This document shows, one piece after another, positions 1 to 9,015 of a DNA stretch of 9,015 bases. The stretch spans positions 1-9,015 of the IMG/VR virus record IMGVR_UViG_2563366903_000010; one strand, 5' to 3'. Source of the stretch: a virus. Taxonomy: Duplodnaviria > Heunggongvirae > Uroviricota > Caudoviricetes. A model generated the notes under the pieces. That model made no database searches. It was not told the origin of the DNA and worked only from the letters and a program-made list of their open reading frames with translations. Each line of letters begins with the position of its first letter. Positions within the stretch are counted from its first letter, which is position 1. The position numbers were made by a program, and so were the translations under genes.

Positions 1-243
1 TTGCCCTGCCGGACCCTGTGGTCCGGGTGGTCCGGCCTCTCCACGTGGGCCGGTGTCACCTTTCGGCCCCGGCGGTCCGCCCGGGTCACCTTTATCGCCC
101 TTCGGTCCCTGTGGACCTGTTTCTCCCCGTTCTCCCTTTGGCCCCGGCTCACCTTTTGGTCCGACCGCCCCCGTTGCCCCGGCTGGTCCCTGTGCCCCTG
201 TGGCACCCTGTGGACCTGTGTCCCCCTTCTCGCCCGCCGGTCC
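1..243 (-). repeat. Collagen-like Gly-X-Y triplet-repeat coding region inside the tail fibre gene (about 27 triplets, one interruption)
   Basis: Translation gives a continuous GXY pattern from residue 136 to the window edge; the DNA shows 9-bp-periodic GGN-CCN-rich low complexity. Confidence 0.7.
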
Positions 244-648
244 CCGGGCATTCTCTGCCCGTTTCTTCGCTTCCTCTGCACTCGCCGCCGACGCTTCAGC
301 ACGCTTCAGGATTTCCGCTGCCACCGCTTCCAGCTCTGCAAGCGCTTTCGGGTAATACTGCGCCTCATCCTGTTCCATCAGAAATTTATTCAGCGTTCCC
401 GGCTCAGAATCCGCCTTCACCAGAATGTCACCCACATACGACGGGGCGTACCCTTCCGTGTTCAGCGTCACCCGGTACCACCCCGGCTCCACATCAAAAC
501 TGTAACTGCCGGTTTCCCCCGGCTGCCCCTGCGCCACCGTGGTGACTATCACTGTCTCTGTGGTGCGTCGCGCTTTCAGCTCTATGGTGCATCCCGGCAC
601 CGGCTTCCCGGTGCCGTCCTTCAGCACGCCCGATATTCTGACTGTCAT
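1..648 (-). CDS. Phage tail fibre protein, 5' part (ATG at 648..646; gene runs off the window start): N-terminal prophage tail-fibre domain, Ala/Glu-rich helical segment, then collagen-like Gly-X-Y repeats
   Basis: My own minus-strand translation from ATG 648 is open to position 1 (216 codons): [26 protein letters not shown]...[34 protein letters not shown], then [55 protein letters not shown]... SD-like GGGAG 7 nt upstream of the ATG. It is the antisense of the listed plus-strand ORFs at 1..663. Lies directly downstream of J, where lambdoid phages carry the side tail fibre gene. Confidence 0.8.
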
Positions 649-830
649 AGATTTCTCCCATAAAAAAACGCAGTACCGGTTACCCGGTCTGCGCTCAGAG
701 GTATAAATTGTGACTGGCTGGTGTTAAAGGGTGCCGTCAGTCAAAGGCACCCGTGGATAATGTACGATGTCCGGCTTTTGTCGTTTTCCGGCAATCACGA
801 ACAGATGGATGAAACCTCACTATCCACCTG

Positions 831-3800
831 TCACGATGCGGTATCAAAATCGTCTGTATAGGATTTCAGGTAAAACAGAACCGGGTCCGGGATCCGAATT
901 TGACTCGTATCATGAAGTATTGAACCACCCCTGTAAAAAAGCACACCTGCTTCATACCTGAATGTAATTTCAACCCGCGCATCACCCTGTCCGGCAGGAA
1001 TACCCCATGAGCCTGACGCACTTCCGCCAACATCAGAATATACCGGCTCATATCTGCTGGCGTTTTTGGAAATCTGGACCTCCCGCTCCCCGGTTTTGAC
1101 TTTGCCTGACCTGGCATGAACGACAACTTTGTCATTTATCTTCATGATGAATTCACCTCTGGAAAATGAATACGCCATAAGCATAAGCTTGCGATCAAAC
1201 GGCATGTTGTCTTTCAGCAAAATCATTTTCTGAAAAGTCAGCTGGTTCTGAGTCATTACGCCCTGCCCCATATCAACCGTGTATCCCTTGACGATATCAC
1301 CAATGATTCGGTCAGCGCTCATCGTTCCATTAATGGTGCAGTCTTCCGCAATCGTCACGTTATTCAGTACCCCGGCACTGGCCGTTATCGTCCCGCTGAT
1401 ATCGGCATTACGGGCCGTCAGCCTGCCGTCCGGCGTCAGGGAGAATGCCGGGGGATTGCCGCCACTGGTAATGGTGGGGGCGGTGAGCGTCTTTATCAGC
1501 GCCTCATTGATAAAGGTCTGTCCACCCTGCGTAACCAGAGCCGGTGTGGTGTTACCATTTTCCGGGTTAATGAATGCCACGCGGTCCGCTGCCAGCAGTA
1601 TCTGGCTCTGCACCCCTTCATCCGTATTCTCAATGCCTGCACCAATACCGGCAATATAAAGGCGTCCGTCCTGCATCTGCTGTAGCTTCACCGCCCACAT
1701 GCTGTTCAGGTCATTATTTGTGTCCGTCTGCACACGCTGGATTTGCTGTATGGTGGCGTTCTGGTCCTCCAGCGTTTTACTGACCGTCTGCGTGATTTCA
1801 TTGCGGGTTTCTGTGATGGTGGTCTGCATTTCCGCCATCTCGTCCTTCAGCTGACTGTTGTCAATCTCTGCCCACAGCGCCTCTGCCAGATGCGTTTTTC
1901 CTATCTTTTCCCGGAAAAGTTCCAGATAGCCCGCAGCATCATTGCTCGCCCGTCCACTGGCTTCCACAAAAGCAGATTTACCCACCAGGTTGACGCTGCG
2001 CACATAAAACCAGAAATCCTTTCCGGGCTTAATGTGCGGACCGGAGACACTCCACTGACTGCCGGTCCCCAGATAACGGGCAGAGGTTTCCACCTGTGCG
2101 GCGTCTGCAATTTTTGCCTCCGAAAACCAGAACTCAAACTGCACCGTCGGGTCATAAATGGTCAGTTTCGGGACTGCCGTTATCTGAAAATACCCCGGCG
2201 TCAGTTCAACACCGGCAGGCGCTGCCGGTGCGTTAATCCGGAACGTGGTGGTGGCGGGTTCGCCCTGCTGGCCATAGCTGTTAATCGCCCTGACCGTCAG
2301 GGTGTATTCCCCGAGAGGCAGGCCACTGAAACGGTGCTCCGTACCGGCAGTGATGGCGGTGGTCAGCAGGCGGCTGTTCTCACCGCTTCCACTGGTCAGG
2401 CGCAGACTGAAGCGCACGCCCTTCACCACCCTCGGCGTGTCCCATTTCGCCAGCGCCAGATACTGACTGTCAGCTGCGCTCACCTCCACCGTCAGGTGCT
2501 GCACTGCCGGTGGGATAACGCTGTTCAGGGTGCCTGACTGCGGCTCAAAGCGGGCCCCGTTATCCACGATGGCTTCTTTTTCCGGTACGTGCTGCACCGC
2601 CGTAACGGCAAAGGTGCCGTCCGTGTTTTCCCGGATGGCCACACAGCGGAACAGGCGACGGCGAAGACCGGGCATTTTCAGTCCCCATACCCCGTATGTC
2701 TCCACGCCATCCGGCAGGGGGCTGACCTGTATCCGGTCAGGCGCAGGGTGTGCGGTAATGTCCACACTCACCGGCTTACCGCTGCCGTTAATCAGGTTCA
2801 CCGTCGATGTCCCCGTCTCCGGGAGTGTCACCTCACGGTCCAGCGTCAGGGTACGGCTGGCGGCATCGATGGCCAGAATGCGTCCGCCGGTCAGGGTCCC
2901 GGCGTAGTCGTTATCACAGATTTCAATGATGTCACCCGGCGTGTGACGCAGCCCCTGTGACCCGAGCGTGAAATCCACCGTCTGTGTTTCCAGCAGTTCC
3001 GTCTTTATCACCCACAGCCCGGCACGGTGAGCCTGACCGCGACTGGTGCAGCCGAACGCGTCCATCTTCAGCAGGTTGCGTCCGTAGCGCAGTATGGCTT
3101 CCGGGTCTTCCACCAGTTCCGTGGAGGTCTGCCAGCCGTTCTGCGGGTCGGTGTAATTCACCTCCACCGCCGTGTGCCGGTCCTTCAGGGCACTGAAGCT
3201 GTAGCGGAACCCCACGCCGTTATCATCCACCACCACATCGCTGTTGGTGTACGGCCACACCACATCCGACGGGCGGTCCTGAACGAACGTCAGCGTCTGG
3301 CCGTTCCATACCGGCATACAGCGCATCGCCGAGCAGAAATCACTGAGCACGTCCCATGCCTTACGCTGTTGTGCCAGGTACGCATTAAAGGTCATCCGCG
3401 GCTCTGTGCCCCCGAAACCATCCGGGACCGTCTGGTCGCAGTACTGCCCGATGGCATACAGCGCCCACTTGTCCACATCCGCCGCCCCCAGACGTTTTCC
3501 CATGCCGTAGCGCGGGTGAGTCAGCATGTCCCACAGGCACCAGGCCGGGTTGTTGCTGTATGCCGGTTTCAGACTGCCGTCCCAGATACCACTGTACGTG
3601 CGTTTTTCCGGGTCATAGTTTGACGGCACCTGGATGATGCGACCGCGGATATGGTAGTTCACCGTCATCTGCTGGCCGCCGAACTGCTCCGCATCCACCT
3701 GCAGCCCCACAATGGCCGTGTTCGGGTAGCACTGTTTCACATCGATGATTTCGGTGTATGACGACCAGAGCGTCTTATTCTGCAGCTGGTCCGTGGTGCT

Positions 3801-4361
3801 GTCCGCCGTCTCCCTGACCATCCGGATGTTAAAGGGGCGGGGAGGCAGATTATCCAGAATCACCGACGCAAGGAACTGTGAGGTGGTCTTGCCGTTAATG
3901 GTGACATCCTTTTCCGTCACCCAGTTACCGTTACGCTGTAACTGAATCAGCAGACGGACAGAGGACGGATTACGGTCACCCTTTGACGTGGTCTCCACCA
4001 GTGACTGCACCCCGAAGGTCACCCGCAGGCGGTCAATGTTCGCTGACGTAATGGTGCGTGTCACCGGTTTTGCCCTGGTCACTTCCACACCCAGTACAGT
4101 TTCAGAGCCGGAGGACTCAAAGCCTTCCGGTGGTGTCTGCTCCTGCTCCCCGGCGCGCCAGACCGCGGTCACACCGTGTATCACGGGATTACCGTCCGTG
4201 TCCGTCAGCGGGGTTTTGTTCACCAGAATACTCTGCAGGCCTTTCACCGGACCTTCAATGGGTCCCTCACCAATCGCATCAATCACGCTCATCATCTGCG
4301 TGGATTTGAGGTTGTCTTTCGCCTCACGCGGTGTGTGCGCCCTGCCGCCACCTTTGCCCAT
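831..4361 (-). CDS. J: Tail tip central fibre / host specificity protein J (1176 aa)
   Basis: ORF-track protein starts MGKGGGRAHTPREAKDNLKSTQMMSVIDAIGEGPIEGP, near-identical in pattern to the remembered lambda J N-terminus (MGKGSSKGHTPREAKDNLKST...), and tracks lambda J through most of its length (e.g. NPPAFSLTPDGRLTARNADISG, NVTIAEDCTINGT). Only the last ~150 aa differ. RBS AAGAGGTGA upstream of the ATG. Confidence 0.95.
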   Translation of the reverse strand: MGKGGGRAHTPREAKDNLKSTQMMSVIDAIGEGPIEGPVKGLQSILVNKTPLTDTDGNPVIHGVTAVWRAGEQEQTPPEGFESSGSETVLGVEVTRAKPVTRTITSANIDRLRVTFGVQSLVETTSKGDRNPSSVRLLIQLQRNGNWVTEKDVTINGKTTSQFLASVILDNLPPRPFNIRMVRETADSTTDQLQNKTLWSSYTEIIDVKQCYPNTAIVGLQVDAEQFGGQQMTVNYHIRGRIIQVPSNYDPEKRTYSGIWDGSLKPAYSNNPAWCLWDMLTHPRYGMGKRLGAADVDKWALYAIGQYCDQTVPDGFGGTEPRMTFNAYLAQQRKAWDVLSDFCSAMRCMPVWNGQTLTFVQDRPSDVVWPYTNSDVVVDDNGVGFRYSFSALKDRHTAVEVNYTDPQNGWQTSTELVEDPEAILRYGRNLLKMDAFGCTSRGQAHRAGLWVIKTELLETQTVDFTLGSQGLRHTPGDIIEICDNDYAGTLTGGRILAIDAASRTLTLDREVTLPETGTSTVNLINGSGKPVSVDITAHPAPDRIQVSPLPDGVETYGVWGLKMPGLRRRLFRCVAIRENTDGTFAVTAVQHVPEKEAIVDNGARFEPQSGTLNSVIPPAVQHLTVEVSAADSQYLALAKWDTPRVVKGVRFSLRLTSGSGENSRLLTTAITAGTEHRFSGLPLGEYTLTVRAINSYGQQGEPATTTFRINAPAAPAGVELTPGYFQITAVPKLTIYDPTVQFEFWFSEAKIADAAQVETSARYLGTGSQWSVSGPHIKPGKDFWFYVRSVNLVGKSAFVEASGRASNDAAGYLELFREKIGKTHLAEALWAEIDNSQLKDEMAEMQTTITETRNEITQTVSKTLEDQNATIQQIQRVQTDTNNDLNSMWAVKLQQMQDGRLYIAGIGAGIENTDEGVQSQILLAADRVAFINPENGNTTPALVTQGGQTFINEALIKTLTAPTITSGGNPPAFSLTPDGRLTARNADISGTITASAGVLNNVTIAEDCTINGTMSADRIIGDIVKGYTVDMGQGVMTQNQLTFQKMILLKDNMPFDRKLMLMAYSFSRGEFIMKINDKVVVHARSGKVKTGEREVQISKNASRYEPVYSDVGGSASGSWGIPAGQGDARVEITFRYEAGVLFYRGGSILHDTSQIRIPDPVLFYLKSYTDDFDTAS

Positions 4362-4390
4362 TACATCACCTCTTACCGTGATAATTGTTC

Positions 4391-4426
4391 ACTCACAAAA
4401 ACAACAGGCACCTCACCGGGTGCCTG
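4391..4426 (-). terminator. Intrinsic terminator-like hairpin, minus-strand orientation, just upstream of the J ribosome-binding site
   Basis: Stem CAGGCACC (4405-4412) / GGTGCCTG (4419-4426), 6-nt loop; on the minus-strand RNA the stem is followed by UUGUUUUUGU. Confidence 0.5.
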
Positions 4427-4464
4427 CGTCATGACGGAATAAAATTTCTGAATATCTTCACATT

Positions 4465-4492
4465 TTCACACACTGACTGTGGCGCTTATAAT
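4465..4492 (+). promoter_or_regulatory. Near-consensus sigma70 promoter on the plus strand (antisense to the tail operon)
   Basis: -35 TTCACA (4465-4470), 16-bp spacer, -10 TATAAT (4487-4492); AT-rich upstream tract aaaatttctgaatatcttca; predicted start near 4499. Confidence 0.55.
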
Positions 4493-4498
4493 TTCGCT

Positions 4499-4597
4499 GC
4501 GTTAGTTTTTTTTTGCCCGAGTAACAAAAACAACTCCTTAACATTAATCTTCATTTGTCTGTCCCCGCAGCTCCGCGATCACTGCGGGATTTTTTTA
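4499..4597 (+). ncRNA. Candidate small RNA (~100 nt) in the I-J intergenic spacer, opposite strand to the tail genes
   Basis: Bounded by the promoter at 4465-4492 and a plus-strand intrinsic terminator (stem CCCGCAG 4564-4570 / CTGCGGG 4582-4588, then AUUUUUUUAUGUUUUAU). No ATG with a ribosome-binding site inside. Contains a CA-rich stretch GUAACAAAAACAACUCCUUAACAUUAAUC. Confidence 0.45.
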
Positions 4598-4601
4598 TGT
4601 T
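4563..4601 (+). terminator. Rho-independent terminator, plus-strand orientation
   Basis: 7-bp GC-rich stem with 11-nt loop followed by a T7 run (4590-4597); abuts the stop codon of I on the other strand. Confidence 0.6.
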
Positions 4602-5282
4602 TTATCCCTGTCGACCAATAACCACCACCTTTCCGCCCCCGCCTTCATCACGGGTGCTGATGTCCTGAGAGATACGTCGTGAACCAACCAGCATTTCCCC
4701 GTAAGGCACCGGCATCGGGTTGCCCTGGGCAATCATGTTATCCAGTGACGAAAAATACGTGTTCTGTCTGCCGTTATCCGTTGCGCGGTAATCCGGTGTT
4801 TTTGCCTTCGGGGCCAGCATCTGGGCCACACCACCCAGAATCATGCTGGCTCCAAGTGAAAACAGCATCGTGGTGGCAGAAAAACCACCGGCTGCCAGGG
4901 CTGAACCCCATAACGCCATCGTGGCTCCGGCAGTGAAGAAAGAGCCCACGATGGCCGCCGCCCCCAGCACAATCTGCAGTCCGCCCTTTCCGGCACCGGC
5001 CAGTCGCGGCACAATATGGATGACCGTTCCCTCACCCAGTGGTTCGTGAAGGCGGGCATACACCGCCTCCGGTGCCGTGTCATCACCGGCAATACGTATC
5101 TGGTACCAGCCTTCGTTCATCTGACGGCGAAAGCCCGGCACCTGCAGCGACAGGGCACGGATGGCTTCCGCCGCCGTGTTCACATACAGGCTGAAGCGGC
5201 GGCCAAATCGTTGTAAATCCCCGTGAAGGCAGATGTGTGCCAGTGGCGGTGACGCCAGACAGAATGCGTTCGTCGTTGCCAT
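4602..5282 (-). CDS. I: Tail tip assembly protein I (226 aa)
   Basis: N-terminus MATTNAFCLASPPLAHICLHGDLQRFGRR matches the remembered lambda I (MAATHTLPLASPGMARICLYGDLQRFGRR); Gly/Ala-rich hydrophobic middle and C-terminal QNTYFSSLDNM..QGN...PV.YGEM.VGSR as in lambda I. Confidence 0.9.
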   Translation of the reverse strand: MATTNAFCLASPPLAHICLHGDLQRFGRRFSLYVNTAAEAIRALSLQVPGFRRQMNEGWYQIRIAGDDTAPEAVYARLHEPLGEGTVIHIVPRLAGAGKGGLQIVLGAAAIVGSFFTAGATMALWGSALAAGGFSATTMLFSLGASMILGGVAQMLAPKAKTPDYRATDNGRQNTYFSSLDNMIAQGNPMPVPYGEMLVGSRRISQDISTRDEGGGGKVVVIGRQG

Positions 5283-5917
5283 TTTTCGGAATACCTCTCC
5301 CGTTTACTCAGTTGTTCAGGCAGATGGTGAAGCAGTTCACCGTTGCCGCAGTAAATGGCGGCATGATTAGCCACCGATGCGCCGAAGCAGCACAGCAGGA
5401 TATCGCCCGGCAGTGCAGAGGACAGGGGCACCCGGTAAAAGCCCGTTGCCTCCATATTGTCCAGGTAAAGGTTCTGACCGTTGCACCACCAGTCATCCTC
5501 ACGGTGAAAATCCGGCATATCAATGCCTGCCAGATGGTATGCATCCCGGAACAGCGTGTAACAGTCCGTCACCCCGTGCGCAAAGCGCCGTCCGGTCAGG
5601 TGCGGAACGCAGCGGAATTTGTGAATGTCACCCCGGCAGACCAGCCACCAGGGCAGGGCACTTTTTATCTGCAGTCGCCGGTCTGCCTCACTCAGCCAGG
5701 GCAGACCACCGGGATGACTGTGGACCAGCGCCACAATCTCACCCTGCATCTCCGCCCGCAGCCAGTCTTCCGGGGCAATACGAAAATACGCCTCCGGCGC
5801 TGCGGAGATATTCACACAGGGCAGGTACCGCTCGCCCTCCGTCGTGGTTATCACGAAGCCGCACGACTCCGCAGGCGCACACCGCCGGGCATGCGCCAAT
5901 ATATTGCTATAGAGCAT
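5180..5917 (-). CDS. K: Tail tip assembly protein K (245 aa), JAMM/MPN-type and NlpC/P60-like motifs
   Basis: Contains HSHPGGLPWLSEAD, an exact HxHx7Sx2D JAMM motif, and a downstream Cys/His segment (DCYTLFRDAYH ... HH) as in lambda K-family proteins. Strong RBS AGGAG 6 nt before the ATG at 5917. 3' end overlaps the I start by 103 nt in another frame. Confidence 0.85.
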   Translation of the reverse strand: MLYSNILAHARRCAPAESCGFVITTTEGERYLPCVNISAAPEAYFRIAPEDWLRAEMQGEIVALVHSHPGGLPWLSEADRRLQIKSALPWWLVCRGDIHKFRCVPHLTGRRFAHGVTDCYTLFRDAYHLAGIDMPDFHREDDWWCNGQNLYLDNMEATGFYRVPLSSALPGDILLCCFGASVANHAAIYCGNGELLHHLPEQLSKRERYSEKWQRRTHSVWRHRHWHTSAFTGIYNDLAAASACM

Positions 5918-5930
5918 GAGAACTCCTGAT

Positions 5931-5958
5931 AAAAAACCCAGCCGAAGCTGGGTTTGTT
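5931..5958 (-). terminator. Rho-independent terminator (usable in both directions; strongest for the minus strand) ending the antirepressor-like gene, 14 nt upstream of the K start
   Basis: AAAAAA (5931-5936), stem CCCAGC (5937-5942), loop CGAA, stem GCTGGG (5947-5952), then TTTGTT. Minus-strand RNA reads hairpin + UUUUUU. Confidence 0.7.
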
Positions 5959-5971
5959 AAGTTGTCAATTG

Positions 5972-6886
5972 TCAGTAGCGATGCAGTGAAGGCGGCAACT
6001 CTTTGTTCTTAAGCCTTTCCCATGCCAGAAGGTTCGTCGGCCCGTCAGGCTCATAAATATCTATATCCCGCGTGTGATTAATTAAAACGCCCCTCGCCCT
6101 CCCGATGGTATACGAGAACTCATAGCCGTAGTCGTGGCATATGCCGGAATAGCCAGACTGAATCAGTTTTAATGCGGGATACAACTCACGGAACAATGCC
6201 TGTGAGCGGTTAGCATAATCCCATAGCCATACAAGGCTGTTTGCTTCTTTTGCGGAAAGCTCGTTGGTGCTCTTCTCTTGTTTGCCGATTAACTCTCCTT
6301 CAAGCGGAACGCGAGCAGCAAGTGACAGAGCTTCGGTAAACTGCTCCTCGCTGATTTCTTTGTACGAACATCCAAAATGTGATTTCAGTGACGACCACAT
6401 GGTGATCATCGCCTTCGCCTGTTTTTCCTTTGGCAGAGACTGACCGCGACTCATGACGAGTTGTTTAATGGCTTCCTGCTGTTCAGTAGTGATTTTCCCC
6501 GGCAACGCCTTTTTAGCTTTCAGTGTATTTCCGTAAGACCCCGTTTTACGAATGGATGGCAAAACTTCAGCTGTCACCCATTTGCGGAATTTGTGCGGGA
6601 CTGAACCTTTATTGACGGCATCGCGGCAACGCAGAACCAATGTATACATACCTGATTCGCTCACAATGCTTAAATTCTGCTCACCACCAAGGGTGTAACT
6701 TAAAGTTACTCCCTTTTCATCGTCATCAAGTGCAGTAAGCGCCTTGCGTGAGTTAGTCAGATTTAAAGCATCACAAACATCTTTTGCTACAAACCACGGC
6801 TCACCGCACTTGTTGATGACGCGGATTTCACTGTCGCCGAATTTGAAGATGGTGAAATCGTTTTGTGCCTTTGCTATACTTTTCAT
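5972..6886 (-). CDS. Bro-N domain phage antirepressor-like protein (304 aa), Ant-like by position downstream of the Arc-like gene
   Basis: N-terminal region [76 protein letters not shown] matches the Bro-N pattern; the C-terminal ~150 aa are unassigned. RBS AGGAAA 7 nt upstream of the ATG. Same size class as P22 Ant (~300 aa). Confidence 0.8.
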
Positions 6887-6918
6887 GTCAATATTTCCTA
6901 ATCCGATTTGTTGATACC

Positions 6919-6950
6919 GAAGCCCTGACTGTTACAGCAGTTGGGGCTTC
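6919..6950 (-). other. Intercistronic stem-loop overlapping the Arc-like stop codon, between the Arc-like and antirepressor-like genes
   Basis: GAAGCCC (6919-6925) / GGGCTTC (6944-6950) with an 18-nt loop. On the plus strand it is followed by AACTTTTTAG; on the minus-strand mRNA there is no U tract, so it is not a canonical terminator there. Confidence 0.3.
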
Positions 6951-7089
6951 AACTTTTTAGGCTGCGAATAAGACGCTGCACTATTTCTGAATTTAAAGAC
7001 CTGCCCTCCTCCTTAGCCTTTTCCTTCAATTTTTCTTTAATCTCTGGCGGGATACGAATCCCTAATGGAGCGATATCTCTAACTTTCAT
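6949..7089 (-). CDS. arc: Arc-like ribbon-helix-helix transcriptional repressor (46 aa from ATG 7089)
   Basis: MKVRDIAPLGIRIPPEIKEKLKEKAKEEGRSLNSEIVQRLIRSLKS; the GRS(L/V)NSEI core and overall layout match remembered P22 Arc (…EENGRSVNSEIYQRVMESFK…). The listed 87-aa ORF starts at a TTG and would cover the promoter region, so the internal ATG is preferred. Confidence 0.7.
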   Translation of the reverse strand: MKVRDIAPLGIRIPPEIKEKLKEKAKEEGRSLNSEIVQRLIRSLKS

Positions 7090-7121
7090 TTCTTTCCCAA
7101 TTGCTACACCGTGATAACTAA

Positions 7122-7149
7122 ATACTACACCGTGCTTATTTAAAGTCAA
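7122..7149 (-). promoter_or_regulatory. Sigma70-like promoter for the Arc-like/antirepressor-like operon
   Basis: On the minus strand: -35 TTGACT (7149..7144), 16-bp spacer, -10 TAGTAT (7127..7122); predicted start near 7115. The -10 overlaps repeat copy 2. Confidence 0.5.
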
Positions 7150-7167
7150 AGTTTTTTTGCCTACACT
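7139..7167 (+). promoter_or_regulatory. Possible promoter for the Mnt-like operon (weak match)
   Basis: -35 TTTAAA (7139-7144), 17-bp spacer, -10 TACACT (7162-7167), overlapping the 13-bp palindrome; placed back-to-back with the minus-strand -35. Confidence 0.3.
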
Positions 7168-7199
7168 GTGTAGCAATGCTACAGCGTGCAGGAGGAAAA

Positions 7200-7448
7200 A
7201 TGAAAGGTGCAAGAGATATCAGTCCCTTGGGAATTAGGATTCCAGACTATTTAAAGAAACGCATTCAGCAGGAAGCGGATAAAAACGGCAGATCAATGAA
7301 CTCAGAGATTGTGCTTATCCTTCAAAAACATGTTGATAATCTTGATGGCCCTCGCTCACTTGAAGGATTCGCTAACCAAGAAGCTGACAAATTCAAAGAG
7401 GCGCTGCTTGAGACGCTAAAGACCATGTATGGTAAGGATGAAAAATAA
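7200..7448 (+). CDS. mnt: Mnt-like ribbon-helix-helix repressor (82 aa from ATG 7200)
   Basis: MKGARDISPLGIRIPDYLKKRIQQEADKNGRSMNSEIVLILQ...FANQEADKFKEALLETLKTMYGKDEK. Same length as P22 Mnt (82 aa), with matching ARD, NGRSMNSE and C-terminal ...TLK..Y.K blocks. GGAGG 4 nt before the ATG at 7200; the listed 90-aa ORF starts 8 codons earlier with no RBS. Confidence 0.8.
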   Translation: MKGARDISPLGIRIPDYLKKRIQQEADKNGRSMNSEIVLILQKHVDNLDGPRSLEGFANQEADKFKEALLETLKTMYGKDEK

Positions 7449-7984
7449 TGCTGCACACAATTCATTTCTTATGCCCCGTTAACACTGCCACTGTTGGGCA
7501 ACTTCAGAACCACTGTCTCACCGCATTATCTCAAGGCGCAACTGAATTAAATATCCATATATCAAGTCAGGGAGGGGAAACTGCCGCTGGCTTTACTGCG
7601 TATAACTTTCTTAAGTCACTCCCTGTTACCGTTAGAACTCACAACATAAGCAATGTTGAATCCATAGCTAATATCGTTTTCCTGGCTGGCTCAGAACGTT
7701 TCGCAAACCCATTATCAAGATTCCTGTTACATCCTCTATTATGGGTCTTTGCCACCCCAGCCGCCGACCATGCCAGATTGAGAGAGTACGGGAAATGCCT
7801 CGATAACGATCTTGATCGCTTCGTTGAGACGTTCAATATCGACATCGGAACCCATATTAGGTGGGCATCCCTGATAGCAGACTCGACCATTTTGGATGCT
7901 AACAAGGCTCTTGAGCATGGCATAATTAATTCCATAAAAACTGCAAGGCTGGTATCCAATCAGGCAAACTGGTGGGTTGTTTGA
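7448..7984 (+). CDS. ClpP-fold (S14-like) putative Ser-His-Asp serine protease, 178 aa, lacking the ClpP N-terminal segment
   Basis: By-eye alignment to E. coli ClpP: LNIHISSQGGETAAG vs IYLYINSPGGVITAG; NVESIANIVFLAG vs GQAASMGAFLLTAG (Ser retained); LLHP vs MIHQP (His retained); LIADS vs TERDRF (Asp retained); EHGIINSI vs EYGLVDSI. The start ATG overlaps the Mnt-like stop (TAATG) with AAGGA upstream, indicating translational coupling. Confidence 0.75.
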   Translation: MLHTIHFLCPVNTATVGQLQNHCLTALSQGATELNIHISSQGGETAAGFTAYNFLKSLPVTVRTHNISNVESIANIVFLAGSERFANPLSRFLLHPLLWVFATPAADHARLREYGKCLDNDLDRFVETFNIDIGTHIRWASLIADSTILDANKALEHGIINSIKTARLVSNQANWWVV

Positions 7985-8009
7985 TGGGTAAATCATGATT
8001 GCTCCTTAT

Positions 8010-8031
8010 AAAAAAACCACCTGACGGTGGG
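8010..8031 (-). terminator. Intrinsic terminator-like hairpin immediately downstream of L (minus orientation)
   Basis: A7 run (8010-8016), stem CCACC (8017-8021), loop TGAC, stem GGTGG (8026-8030); minus-strand RNA reads hairpin + UUUUUUU. On the plus strand there is no U tract after it. Confidence 0.5.
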
Positions 8032-8040
8032 CATAATCCA

Positions 8041-8739
8041 TTACTGCGAAAGTTTATTAATGGAAAGGAAACCGCCAAAATTGCCGACATTCCTGCGCAG
8101 TTCACACCCGCGCATGCACTTGCTGCATCTGTCCTTACGGATATCGGTGGTGGGTTTATCGAACTCATCCGCCACAGCCCCGCCCGTGTAACCACACTCA
8201 TCAGAGCGGTAAGTCCACATACAGGTATTCGCCAGCATAATGCGACCGGGAAACAGCGCCCCGTCCGTCTCGGTCGGTGTGGCCAGCACAAACGAGGCCG
8301 TCATGGCTGTGAGCTGCGACATCTGCTCCACCACCCAGCGGTCCGTCAGCTCCTGCTCCGGGTCAGCCTCCGGATTGCCTGCCACAAAATTCACCGCATC
8401 CAGAAAACGCGCATACACCCGGCGACGAACCACCGTGGCCCCCACCAGGCTCTGCAAATCCTCCGCCATCCCGGTGACCAGCCCGAACAGATTCGACACC
8501 GTCAGTGACGGGCGGGCACTGCTCCCTTTCCCGTTCATCTCAAAGCCGCTGCCGTCAATCGGGTATGCCTGGTACTTCCGCCCCTGCCAGGTGACCGGCT
8601 CCCCTTTTTCATTCAGCTCATTACAGAAAAAATACCGCTCACCGCCCTGTACCGTCAGGTCGATTTCCCAGAGTACCACCCGCGGTGACTGCTCTGATTT
8701 AATCGACTCATTCAGGCTTTCTTCGTTGATCTCCTGCAT
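8041..8739 (-). CDS. L: Tail tip protein L (232 aa from ATG 8739)
   Basis: MQEINEESLNE...VVLWEIDLT..GGERYFFCNE.NEKGEPVTWQGR.YQ.YPI.GSGFE.NGKG...FLSINKLSQ matches remembered lambda L along its full length, including the C-terminus. The listed 250-aa ORF adds 18 N-terminal codons that run through a terminator hairpin and are rejected. Confidence 0.9.
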   Translation of the reverse strand: MQEINEESLNESIKSEQSPRVVLWEIDLTVQGGERYFFCNELNEKGEPVTWQGRKYQAYPIDGSGFEMNGKGSSARPSLTVSNLFGLVTGMAEDLQSLVGATVVRRRVYARFLDAVNFVAGNPEADPEQELTDRWVVEQMSQLTAMTASFVLATPTETDGALFPGRIMLANTCMWTYRSDECGYTGGAVADEFDKPTTDIRKDRCSKCMRGCELRRNVGNFGGFLSINKLSQ

Positions 8740-8752
8740 AAACATCCACCCA

Positions 8753-8777
8753 TAAAAAAAGGGGCGCAATGCGCCCC
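8753..8777 (-). terminator. Rho-independent terminator (minus orientation) ending about 14 nt upstream of the L start codon
   Basis: Stem GGGGCGC (8761-8767), loop AAT, stem GCGCCCC (8771-8777), with an A7 run at 8754-8760 on the plus strand, i.e. hairpin + UUUUUUU on the minus-strand RNA. Confidence 0.65.
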
Positions 8778-8835
8778 TGATAAAATAGTTCAATTAAAAA
8801 ATCAAAAACGATGAAGGTAATAAAATGAAAATTAA

Positions 8836-8852
8836 ATCAGCTAATAGCTGAT
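8836..8852. repeat. Perfect 17-bp palindrome ATCAGCTA-A-TAGCTGAT
   Basis: Read directly from the sequence; intergenic between the porin gene and L. Candidate protein-binding site. Confidence 0.5.
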
Positions 8853-8861
8853 CGCAGTGAC

Positions 8862-8916
8862 CAGTGGAAATATAACTTCCACTGATACAGGCCATCTGTG
8901 AGGGCAGATGGCCTGT
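8862..8916. other. Two adjacent stem-loops just downstream of the porin stop codon
   Basis: CAGTGGAA (8862-8869) / TTCCACTG (8877-8884), and ACAGGCCATCTG (8887-8898) / CAGATGGCCTGT (8905-8916). The second is followed by TATTTATTT on the plus strand. Confidence 0.4.
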
Positions 8917-8935
8917 ATTTATTTACCAGTAATCA

Positions 8936-9015
8936 TCAGAACTGATAAGTCATACCAACAGCAACGATATCATCCGTTGCAATGCCCGCATCCCTGGTAA
9001 ACTTATTCTCATCAA
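8936..9015 (-). CDS. 3' end of an OmpC/NmpC-family general porin gene (C-terminal 25 codons plus stop; gene continues beyond the window end)
   Basis: Minus-strand translation ...DENKFTRDAGIATDDIVAVGMTYQF-stop. The terminal ...VA.G..YQF with aromatic C-terminus and the preceding D.N.FTRDAGI.TD.IVA pattern match remembered enterobacterial porin C-termini (OmpC ...[24 protein letters not shown]). Confidence 0.6.
   Translation of the reverse strand, partial: DENKFTRDAGIATDDIVAVGMTYQF

Follow-up and report, generated by a model that had tools for sequence, protein, structure and literature searches.

An immI-type antirepressor module, probably functional, between the tail genes L and K of an Escherichia coli lambda-like prophage

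The DNA analyzed here (the window) comprises 9,015 nucleotides of the IMG/VR virus record IMGVR_UViG_2563366903_000010 (positions 1 to 9,015) and represents the tail-tip region of an Escherichia coli lambda-like prophage, the tail genes of which lie on the minus strand. Between the tail genes L and K we found a block of 2123 bp (5918-8040), in agreement with the approximately 2.1 kb reported for this gap in an initial annotation of the window. We identified the block as a complete antirepressor module of the immI type known from phage P22, which entered the late operon of a lambda-like siphovirus prophage by recombination, directly after the L stop codon, and which is probably functional, a view that we hold with good confidence. 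The initial annotation had proposed a module of three genes. Antirepressor (ant), arc-like and mnt-like genes are indeed present, but the block additionally harbors a gene for a ClpP-like protein and an antisense RNA of the sar type, so that it consists of four genes and one small RNA. All open reading frames (ORFs) of the module are intact, and each of its parts is homologous to a part already known from other phages or bacteria.

The L/K site is polymorphic, and the block is an insertion. In phage PhiR12_2 and in many other phages, the distance between L and K is 10 bp. Out of 5426 complete E. coli genomes, 2007 contained the empty L-K junction, which was searched with a 96-bp probe (a match was counted if it covered at least 80% of the probe length). 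The K-side junction of the occupied site was detected in 631 of these genomes, with a median of two and up to six copies per carrier genome. These numbers affirmed that the block is not a universal component of the tail region. As noted initially, it is also richer in AT than its surroundings: the guanine-cytosine (GC) content of the insert was 0.447, compared with 0.575 for L, 0.587 for K, 0.592 for I and 0.572 for J. The expected insertion boundaries had to be corrected on one side. By comparison with relatives, the left junction was placed at the L stop codon as anticipated, but the right one does not coincide with the start of K. Here the recombination joint resides approximately seven codons inside the gene, since homology to the empty-site phages restarts at 5898, and at the occupied site the K N-terminus MTQTESAIL is replaced by MLYSNIL. 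The junction sequences are MLYSNILAHARR for the occupied and MTQTESAILAHARR for the empty site. In the module of phage Stx2a_WGPS6, both junctions are the same as in the window.

The terminator hairpins described for both ends of the block were recovered as terminator-like structures. The convergent mnt-ClpP operon likewise has the hairpin following L at its 3′-end, but on the strand of this operon no T-run accompanies it. The hairpin was also found 3′ of the ClpP-like gene in three P22-like prophages (L020, L021 and L043) and 3′ of mnt in a Shiga toxin (Stx) phage (L003). The hairpin following ant lies within a segment (5931-6305) showing 82% identity to P22 positions 15660-16034, which contain the annotated ant terminator. 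Thus, the block is absent at the same junction in close relatives, has a deviant GC content, possesses terminator-like hairpins at both ends and, judged by sequence match, promoter-like sites of its own, and it therefore shows the properties of a moron. It resembles the morons of lambdoid phages (lom and bor of lambda, those of HK97 and HK022) in its presence or absence between the same two genes, its lower GC content and its own promoter- and terminator-like signals. However, while these morons are single accessory genes, the L/K block is a multi-gene circuit composed of two divergent operons and a small RNA, and its right joint substitutes the first codons of K.

The genes are arranged as had been proposed. 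Two genes for ribbon-helix-helix (RHH) proteins diverge from each other, mnt-like on the plus strand and arc-ant on the minus strand, with the antirepressor gene 3′ of the arc-like gene; the same layout exists in P22 (14519-15993). Both RHH proteins could be assigned to the Arc/Mnt family (PF03869), as suspected. In BLASTP comparisons the Arc-like protein was 43% identical to P22 Arc (E=2e-10), and the Mnt-like protein could be aligned with P22 Mnt at 33% identity (E=1e-13), the alignment comprising residues 4-79 and thus also the C-terminal tail 58-79. A match to PHROG 245 ("anti-repressor Ant", E=1.5e-104) covered the whole product of ant (304 aa). Its presumed kinship to P22 Ant applies to the C-terminal half, where 63% identity was obtained over 171 residues (E=5e-71) and approximately 80% over the last 110 residues, but not to the N-terminal half, which is a Bro-N domain. 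The protein is a mosaic: residues 1 to ~122 make up the Bro-N part, and residues ~123-304 are common to Ant proteins of Stx phages and of the P22 type. On the nucleotide level, the breakpoint lies at ~6520. A sequence search of PDB with Ant gave nothing at E<=0.1.

The control region between the divergent genes contains four copies of the pattern CTACAC-N-GTG, which we regard as putative operators (O1 to O4). Six matches to this pattern exist in the 9-kb window, five of them within the 87 bp of the control region. O2 overlaps the spacer and the -10 hexamer of a Pant-like promoter directed into arc-ant, as does the arc operator of P22, and O1 is situated just downstream, like the P22 mnt operator, with which the putative operators have the centre CAC-N-GTG in common. 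The Arc-like and the Mnt-like protein possess the same N-terminal strand, RDI(A/S)PLGIRIP, encoded by different codons. Relatives of this Mnt in P22-like prophages of Salmonella, Serratia and Tatumella are paired with an Arc bearing the same strand, whereas in P22 and in the loci L003, L009, L020 and L021 the strands of the two repressors differ. In P22, the specificity of the repressors lies in their differing N-terminal residues. O1 to O3, their spacing of 21 and 36 bp and the hexamers of the Pant-like promoter are retained in E. coli, Salmonella, Serratia and Tatumella (mean column identity 85%), while the flanking genes diverge. This conservation lends phylogenetic support to the operator assignment and suggests that the module belongs to a subclass of immI in which apparently both repressors read one operator core. 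The other three genera do not retain O4, which was kept as a possible fourth operator only. We also noticed that in the RefSeq record of P22 (NC_002371, L004) mnt (14519-14770) is named "partition protein ATPase", a label that is likewise attached to PHROGs 2685 and 795. This is an annotation error which will spread to Mnt-like genes including the one described here.

The antisense RNA matched the full sar model of Rfam (RF00262) with 69.4 bits, the gathering threshold being 43 bits (E=3.6e-13). The RNA is complementary both to the spacer between arc and ant and to the Shine-Dalgarno (SD) sequence of ant, its 5′-end is one base away from the ant start codon, and its 3′-end consists of a 14-bp hairpin followed by a T-run (fold -28.3 kcal/mol, z = -5.8). 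The DNA comprising the ant start and sar (6871-6956) is 83% identical to P22. A Psar-like promoter lies within the first ant codons, in the same position relative to ant as the annotated P22 Psar (15097-15125). Other Rfam matches (MicF-like with 28 bits versus 79, ctRNA_pGA1 overlapping sar, rsmX and snoRNA hits) all remained below their gathering thresholds and were rejected.

By analogy to P22, the module would most likely operate as follows. In a lysogen, a tetrameric RHH repressor of the Mnt type would be produced from its own promoter and bind to CTACAC-N-GTG, whereby the Pant-like promoter would be switched off and Ant not be made. If the module enters a cell free of Mnt, Pant should fire briefly, yielding Arc and Ant, before Arc shuts down both Pant and Pmnt. 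Ant is predicted to inactivate repressors of the CI type by non-covalent binding and thus to antagonize the lysogenic repression of its own prophage or of resident lambdoid prophages. To reach K, I and J, long late transcripts would have to pass through the module; on these Q-antiterminated transcripts, sar, initiated inside ant, may pair with the ribosome-binding site of ant and block its translation. The terminators after L and after ant would insulate the tail genes from transcription of the module in the lysogen, while the Q-modified polymerase would pass both of them. For phage PhiR12_1, in which a module with 97.5% identity resides, cI (235 aa), cro, cII, N and Q are annotated, which offers a repressor of the CI type as a possible target.

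Several points weigh against this interpretation. All statements on function are drawn by analogy to P22. The region contained no more promoter-like hits than expected by chance (3 found, 3.7 expected), and the value of the sites hence derives from their position and conservation and not from how many there are. The consensus scan did not recover Pmnt; candidates, not placed with confidence, are TTTAAA-17-TACACT or a fully overlapping arrangement like that of P22. Because Arc and Mnt share the reading strand and the operators have one core, the division of labor between the arc and mnt operators of P22 is not simply transferable. The Mnt-like protein did not reach the model of the Mnt C-domain (PF11423, Repressor_Mnt), which was detected in the Mnt proteins of P22 and Pectobacterium, and the N-terminal half of Ant has no significant similarity to the N-domain of P22 Ant (P22_AR_N). 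In the commonest L/K module, that of the Stx phages, arc overlaps ant and no sar was detected, indicating that control by sar is not obligatory at this site. Finally, some copies of the module are situated in probably defective prophages, for instance in strain NCTC9112, where gene I is broken by ISEc12.

The same machinery may serve another purpose. Instead of providing a second layer of immunity, which homology suggests, it could be mainly a weapon or signal between prophages, Ant produced upon infection or induction inactivating the repressors of other lambdoid prophages in the cell and thereby causing induction in trans or crosstalk. We consider this quite possible, albeit not the favored explanation. 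The action of antirepressors can extend to non-cognate repressors, and through them several prophages can be coupled in their induction (Lemire et al. 2011, PMC3121763). The multiple copies of the K-side junction in carrier genomes mean that many potential Ant targets coexist, and PhiR12_1 has a CI-type immunity region independent of the module as well as a second ant gene in its nin region. Nevertheless, an immunity role would still be compatible with such activities, as in P22 immunity and trans effects emanate from the same immI circuit.

The second ant gene of PhiR12_1 (L018) encodes the same C-terminal domain as the one at the L/K site. Positions 16118-16475 of this phage, comprising the ant 3′-end and the terminator, are 97% identical to window positions 5929-6286 over 358 bp. 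The two ant 3′-ends of PhiR12_1 form a direct repeat with a distance of ~25 kb, which could mediate deletions or an exchange of domains.

The immI-type module of the window is composed of segments with different relatives. The C-terminal two-thirds of ant are related to the L/K modules of Stx phages and to an E. coli P22-like prophage, while the Bro-N half of ant as well as the segment containing arc, the operators and the mnt N-terminus matched none of the compared loci apart from the near-identical copy in PhiR12_1. The stretch from the mnt C-terminus through the ClpP-like gene to the hairpin shows an identity of 97-99% to immI in P22-like prophages of E. coli, where immI resides between a gp16-like injection gene and the tailspike gene. 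This high identity points to a recent exchange between late operons of the podovirus and the siphovirus type.

A comparison with immI of P22 (NC_002371) revealed the same gene order and orientation, RHH repressors, a Mnt that is homologous over its full length and a terminator following ant. In both phages sar has its promoter inside ant and its 5′-end adjoins the ant start. Moreover, both modules are located within the late operon with arc-ant pointing in the direction of the late genes (here the strand of L, K, I and J), and the ant 3′-end, terminator and sar are 82-83% identical. They differ in the carrier, here a lambda-like siphovirus, and in the site, which is L/K here and gene 16/gene 9 in P22, as well as in the N-domain of Ant (Bro-N here). 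P22 has two distinct operators, whereas in the window Arc and Mnt share the PLGIRIP strand and there are three or four copies of one operator core. Mnt is followed by the ClpP-like gene here, by orf59a and sieA in P22. The layout mnt-ClpP/arc/sar/ant also exists in P22-like prophages of Pectobacterium and Salmonella. Among the mnt-ClpP modules of such prophages in E. coli, Salmonella and Pectobacterium (L020, L021, L043 and L009), which have the mnt C-terminus, ClpP-like gene and hairpin in common with the window, sar was found in L020, L043 and L009, but not detected in L021. In contrast to the module of the window, they are located between an injection-protein gene and the tailspike gene of podovirus-type prophages and encode an Ant of the P22_AR_N type. 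Their Arc/Mnt specificities are other ones, except for Salmonella L043, which exhibits the same Arc/Mnt heads and operators. The L/K modules of Stx and lambdoid phages (Stx2a_WGPS6, NC_049945; 2851; YYZ-2008; 1717) agree with the window in both junctions and in the 3′ two-thirds of ant (approximately 90% identity), and in RefSeq their genes are labeled as anti-repressor Ant and Arc-like repressor. Unlike the module studied here, they lack a ClpP-like gene, possess a P22-type N-domain of Ant and contain a mnt-like gene of 106 aa with different heads and operators.

The ATG of the ClpP-like gene overlaps the mnt stop codon (TAATG), and the gene occupies about a quarter of the insert. Its nearest solved relative in PDB is PpClpP1 of Pseudomonas plecoglossicida (9UXT, E=2.3e-35). 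The protein starts ~25 residues later than canonical ClpPs, its residue 23 aligning with residue 50 of M. tuberculosis ClpP1, and has no canonical N-terminal axial loop region, which in ClpP gates the pore and docks ClpX or ClpA. Ser72 and His95 were invariant in 35 homologues, whereas the position of the canonical Asp was variable (D-S here, Y-P in 9UXT). PpClpP1, which is truncated at its N-terminus, assembles into a tetradecamer, has a Ser-His-Pro triad, shows low activity and does not bind ClpX; with canonical ClpP it forms mixed tetradecamers, raising ClpXP activity (PMC12900304). Both proteins consist of ~180 aa, have no N-terminal axial region, keep the catalytic Ser and His and apparently have a third triad residue other than Asp. 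They differ in that the gene described here is prophage-borne and coupled to mnt, and that its product shows Ser, directly preceded by Asp, at the position of Pro151. Most close relatives of PpClpP1 (L005-L017) belong to prophage morons whose orientation opposes that of the late genes, and the PpClpP1 paralogue may itself be derived from a prophage; the word "prophage" does not appear in the paper on PpClpP1 (PMC12900304).

The possibility that the ClpP-like protein is a head maturation protease was rejected. Its gene lies among the tail genes but is read from the other strand, the score with the NCBIfam model was 49.7 at a cut-off of 120, and the carrier prophage has an S49 head protease of its own. 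More generally, neither the models of canonical ClpP nor those of head proteases came anywhere near their cut-offs with this protein. The ClpP-like gene was present in six out of 50,697 phage records, and the mnt C-terminus together with the ClpP-like gene was found at more than 90% nucleotide identity in 177 E. coli genomes. A genome-wide scan yielded 20 ClpP-like loci, which belonged to Enterobacterales, to Betaproteobacteria and to a few metagenome-assembled genomes with other labels. Among the ORFs listed upstream of these loci there was no evident mnt-like gene, indicating that the link to mnt is specific to immI contexts. Elsewhere, for example in prophages of Klebsiella and Leclercia, the gene stands alone in reverse orientation between lysis and terminase genes. 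Conversely, in other P22-like prophages the slot following mnt is occupied by unrelated genes, namely by two unknown ORFs of 128 aa, by a gene with a Rap1a domain, similar to immunity genes of type VI secretion systems, plus an unknown ORF, or by three unknown ORFs. The Ant N-domains associated with this circuit vary as well (P22_AR_N, Bro-N, KilA-N), and so do the C-domains. The varied slot and the stand-alone loci indicate that the ClpP-like gene is cargo rather than a part of the switch. Its translation is coupled to that of mnt, and the most plausible reading is that of cargo which would be expressed in the lysogen from Pmnt.

Opposite to the 3′-half of the ClpP-like gene, an ORF of 85 codons (7996..7739, minus strand) with the SD sequence AAGGAG was noticed, which is codon-aligned with the sense gene and whose ATG lies four codons outside the sense stop. 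Equivalent antisense ORFs exist in the homologues of Pectobacterium, Pantoea and Chromobacterium. In 13 homologues, Leu and Ser sense codons creating antisense stops amounted to 94 out of 270 in the first 97 codons, and to 16 out of 166 in the overlap, a depletion of about fivefold (Fisher p ~1e-9, by a statistic which ignores the relatedness of the sequences). For other codons ending with A, the overlapped and non-overlapped parts did not differ. Synonymous divergence over the antisense ORF was not reduced except in the comparison with Pectobacterium, and a Pfam match was not obtained.

Instead of the antirepressor circuit, the selected unit could be the operon of mnt and the ClpP-like gene, a cassette for lysogenic conversion or anti-phage activity whose payload, the truncated ClpP, possibly mixes with the host ClpP. 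Mnt would then be the regulator of this payload, and arc, sar and ant would be baggage of ancestral origin. This is conceivable, but we judge it to be rather unlikely. The consistent orientation of the ClpP-like gene against the late genes is what one would expect of a moron expressed in the lysogen, and the mixed tetradecamers of PpClpP1, the alternative cargo downstream of mnt with its Rap1a-domain gene and the 177 E. coli genomes also fit. On the other hand, PADLOC defence models gave no match for any of the four insert proteins, arc, sar and ant are intact with control signals kept across genera, and most L/K modules do without a ClpP-like gene. A further, composite proposal is that the truncated ClpP acts as a Pmnt-driven effector of lysogeny which, by co-assembly with host ClpP in the manner of PpClpP1, might rewire ClpXP and ClpAP and thus exclude superinfecting phages or tune the stability of phage regulators, that its 3′-half maybe encodes a conserved antisense protein of 85 aa, and that Arc and Mnt compete for the same operators in this subclass of immI. 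It is doubtful that all of these propositions hold together.

That the Bro-N protein is not an antirepressor but another, perhaps DNA-binding, regulator or an anti-defence protein timed by Arc, Mnt and sar, appears improbable. This alternative would be in line with the N-terminal half dissimilar to P22 Ant, the exchange of N- and C-domains on this circuit and the lack of a related solved structure in the PDB sequence search, but it has to face the full-length match to PHROG 245, the close similarity of the last 110 residues to P22 Ant and the identical regulatory position of the gene. A decaying, non-functional remnant in cryptic prophages, to which the identical copy in the IS-disrupted NCTC9112 prophage might point, is very improbable in view of four intact ORFs plus sar, conserved signals and near-identical copies in the records of the phages PhiR12_1, PhiR12_4 and PhiR12_5, for which laboratory strains are named as hosts.

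Table 1. Positions of the module, its predicted signals and the neighboring genes (window coordinates unless a locus is named).
Feature	Position	Strand	Evidence or remarks
Left junction, L stop codon	8043..8041	-	homology to empty-site PhiR12_2 ends exactly at 8041
Hairpin CCACCGTCAGGTGG (CCACC-GTCA-GGTGG) + T7, terminator-like, after L	8030..8017	-	terminator scan; -8.6 kcal/mol
ClpP-like gene, 178 aa, N-terminally truncated	7448..7984	+	PF00574 Clp_protease, E=1.6e-11
mnt-like gene, 82 aa, SD AGGAGG	7200..7448	+	PF03869, E=7e-8; RHH N-domain and C-terminal tail
Control region, four copies of CTACAC-N-GTG	7102..7188		pattern scan; repeat family D1, spacings 21, 36 and 18 bp
Putative operator O1	7102-7113		
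Putative operator O2	7123-7134		
Putative operator O3	7161-7173		perfect palindrome CTACACTGTGTAG
Putative operator O4	7177-7188		
Pant-like promoter TTGACT-16-TAGTAT, into arc-ant	7149..7122	-	consensus scan; aligned with annotated P22 Pant
arc-like gene, 46 aa	7089..6949	-	PF03869, E=5e-13
sar-type antisense RNA	6888..6954	+	Rfam RF00262
Psar-like promoter GTGAAA-17-TATACT, upstream TG	6852..6880	+	consensus scan; predicted start ~6887/6888
ant, 304 aa	6886..5972	-	Bro-N, E=2.5e-20; P22_AR_C, E=4.5e-26
Hairpin AAACCCAGC-TTCG-GCTGGGTTT + T-run, terminator-like, 3′ of ant, 14 nt before K start	5957..5938	-	-15.1 kcal/mol, z = -5.1
Right junction, module-borne SD (CAGGAG) and new K 5′-end	5937..5897	-	comparison with PhiR12_2 and Stx2a_WGPS6
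Segment with ant C-terminal two-thirds	5931-6520		90% to Stx-phage L/K modules; 86% to E. coli P22-like prophage
Segment with Bro-N half of ant	6521-6870		no match in compared loci except near-identical PhiR12_1 copy
Segment with arc, operators and mnt N-terminus	6957-7355		no match in compared loci except near-identical PhiR12_1 copy
Segment with mnt C-terminus, ClpP-like gene and hairpin	7356-8031		97-99% to immI of E. coli P22-like prophages
Porin gene, 3′-end	9015..8935	-	
Tail gene L	8739 (8793)..8041	-	PF05100 Phage_tail_L, E=2.6e-92; identical NCTC9112 copy: 699-bp L in RefSeq
Tail gene K	5917..5180	-	Prok-JAB and NlpC/P60
Tail gene I	5282..4602	-	
Tail gene J	4361..831	-	
Collagen-repeat tail fibre, start only	window left end	-	
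Post-mnt slots of P22-like prophages, lysogen-oriented cargo	L044 3772-4577; L045 3743-4613; L046 3746-4801		

The positions of all features are given in Table 1. The block is 100% identical in E. coli NCTC9112, and modules with 99.7-100% identity were found in 11 complete E. coli genomes, a twelfth copy showing 93%. The phages PhiR12_1, PhiR12_4 and PhiR12_5, which contain the module at 97.5% identity, have E. coli MG1655 or C as host according to their records. In NCTC9112 (L001, 16099-19365), gene I, which is intact in the window, is split by ISEc12, an insertion sequence of the IS21 family, and this prophage copy is probably defective. In relatives, K is annotated as C40 family peptidase or tail tip assembly protein K.

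Some other properties of the window were recorded. The gene adjoining L on its upstream side is not M; this position is taken by the 3′-end of a prophage-borne gene for an OmpC-type porin (...GMTYQF*; 8740-9015, minus strand). The porin gene is a second moron of the same tail-tip cluster. The spacer between the porin gene and L (195 bp, 37% GC) contains several hairpins, among them a strong terminator, GGGGCGC-ATT-GCGCCCC followed by T7, just before the L start. We found the porin-L junction in 22 genomes of E. coli. The copy inspected, from strain 2012EL-2448, has the gene order M, porin, L, with K directly next to L. I and J are separated by an AT-rich gap of 240 bp (4362-4601, minus strand), which contains an ORF of 22 codons and, just 5′ of J, the terminator-like hairpin CAGGCACC-CGGTGA-GGTGCCTG with a T-run. 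A gap of equal size exists in Stx phages, and in PhiR12_1 an ORF of 32 aa is annotated there. The left end of the window (1-650, minus strand) shows 70% GC and a strong skew caused by Gly-X-Y collagen-like repeats in the N-terminal part of a side tail fibre, whose gene leaves the window.

The immI region as such is classic, RefSeq phage records and genomes already have annotated Ant and Arc genes at the L/K site, and surveys have counted or listed ant genes in Stx and Sakai prophages. Our literature search found no description of an immI-like module at L/K, its sar, the mnt-ClpP variant or a ClpP moron of prophages, and no relevant paper on "PhiR12". We regard the exchange of the module between phage morphotypes, the specificity shared by Arc and Mnt and the truncated ClpP cargo as features of modest interest. 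Annotation is improved with respect to sar, to the true position of the junctions and to the ClpP-like gene, a gene mislabeled as head protease or subunit of the ATP-dependent Clp protease. The P22 immI switch is not restricted to P22-like podoviruses, as complete copies with sar reside in the tail operon of lambda-like prophages of E. coli. The circuit appears to be a natural variant in which one specificity is common to Arc and Mnt, and the truncated ClpP would represent a defined cargo gene expressed together with the repressor that maintains lysogeny. About one in nine E. coli genomes carries some L/K module, and as Stx-converting phages are included among the carriers, cross-induction by antirepressors could bear on the induction of toxin phages.

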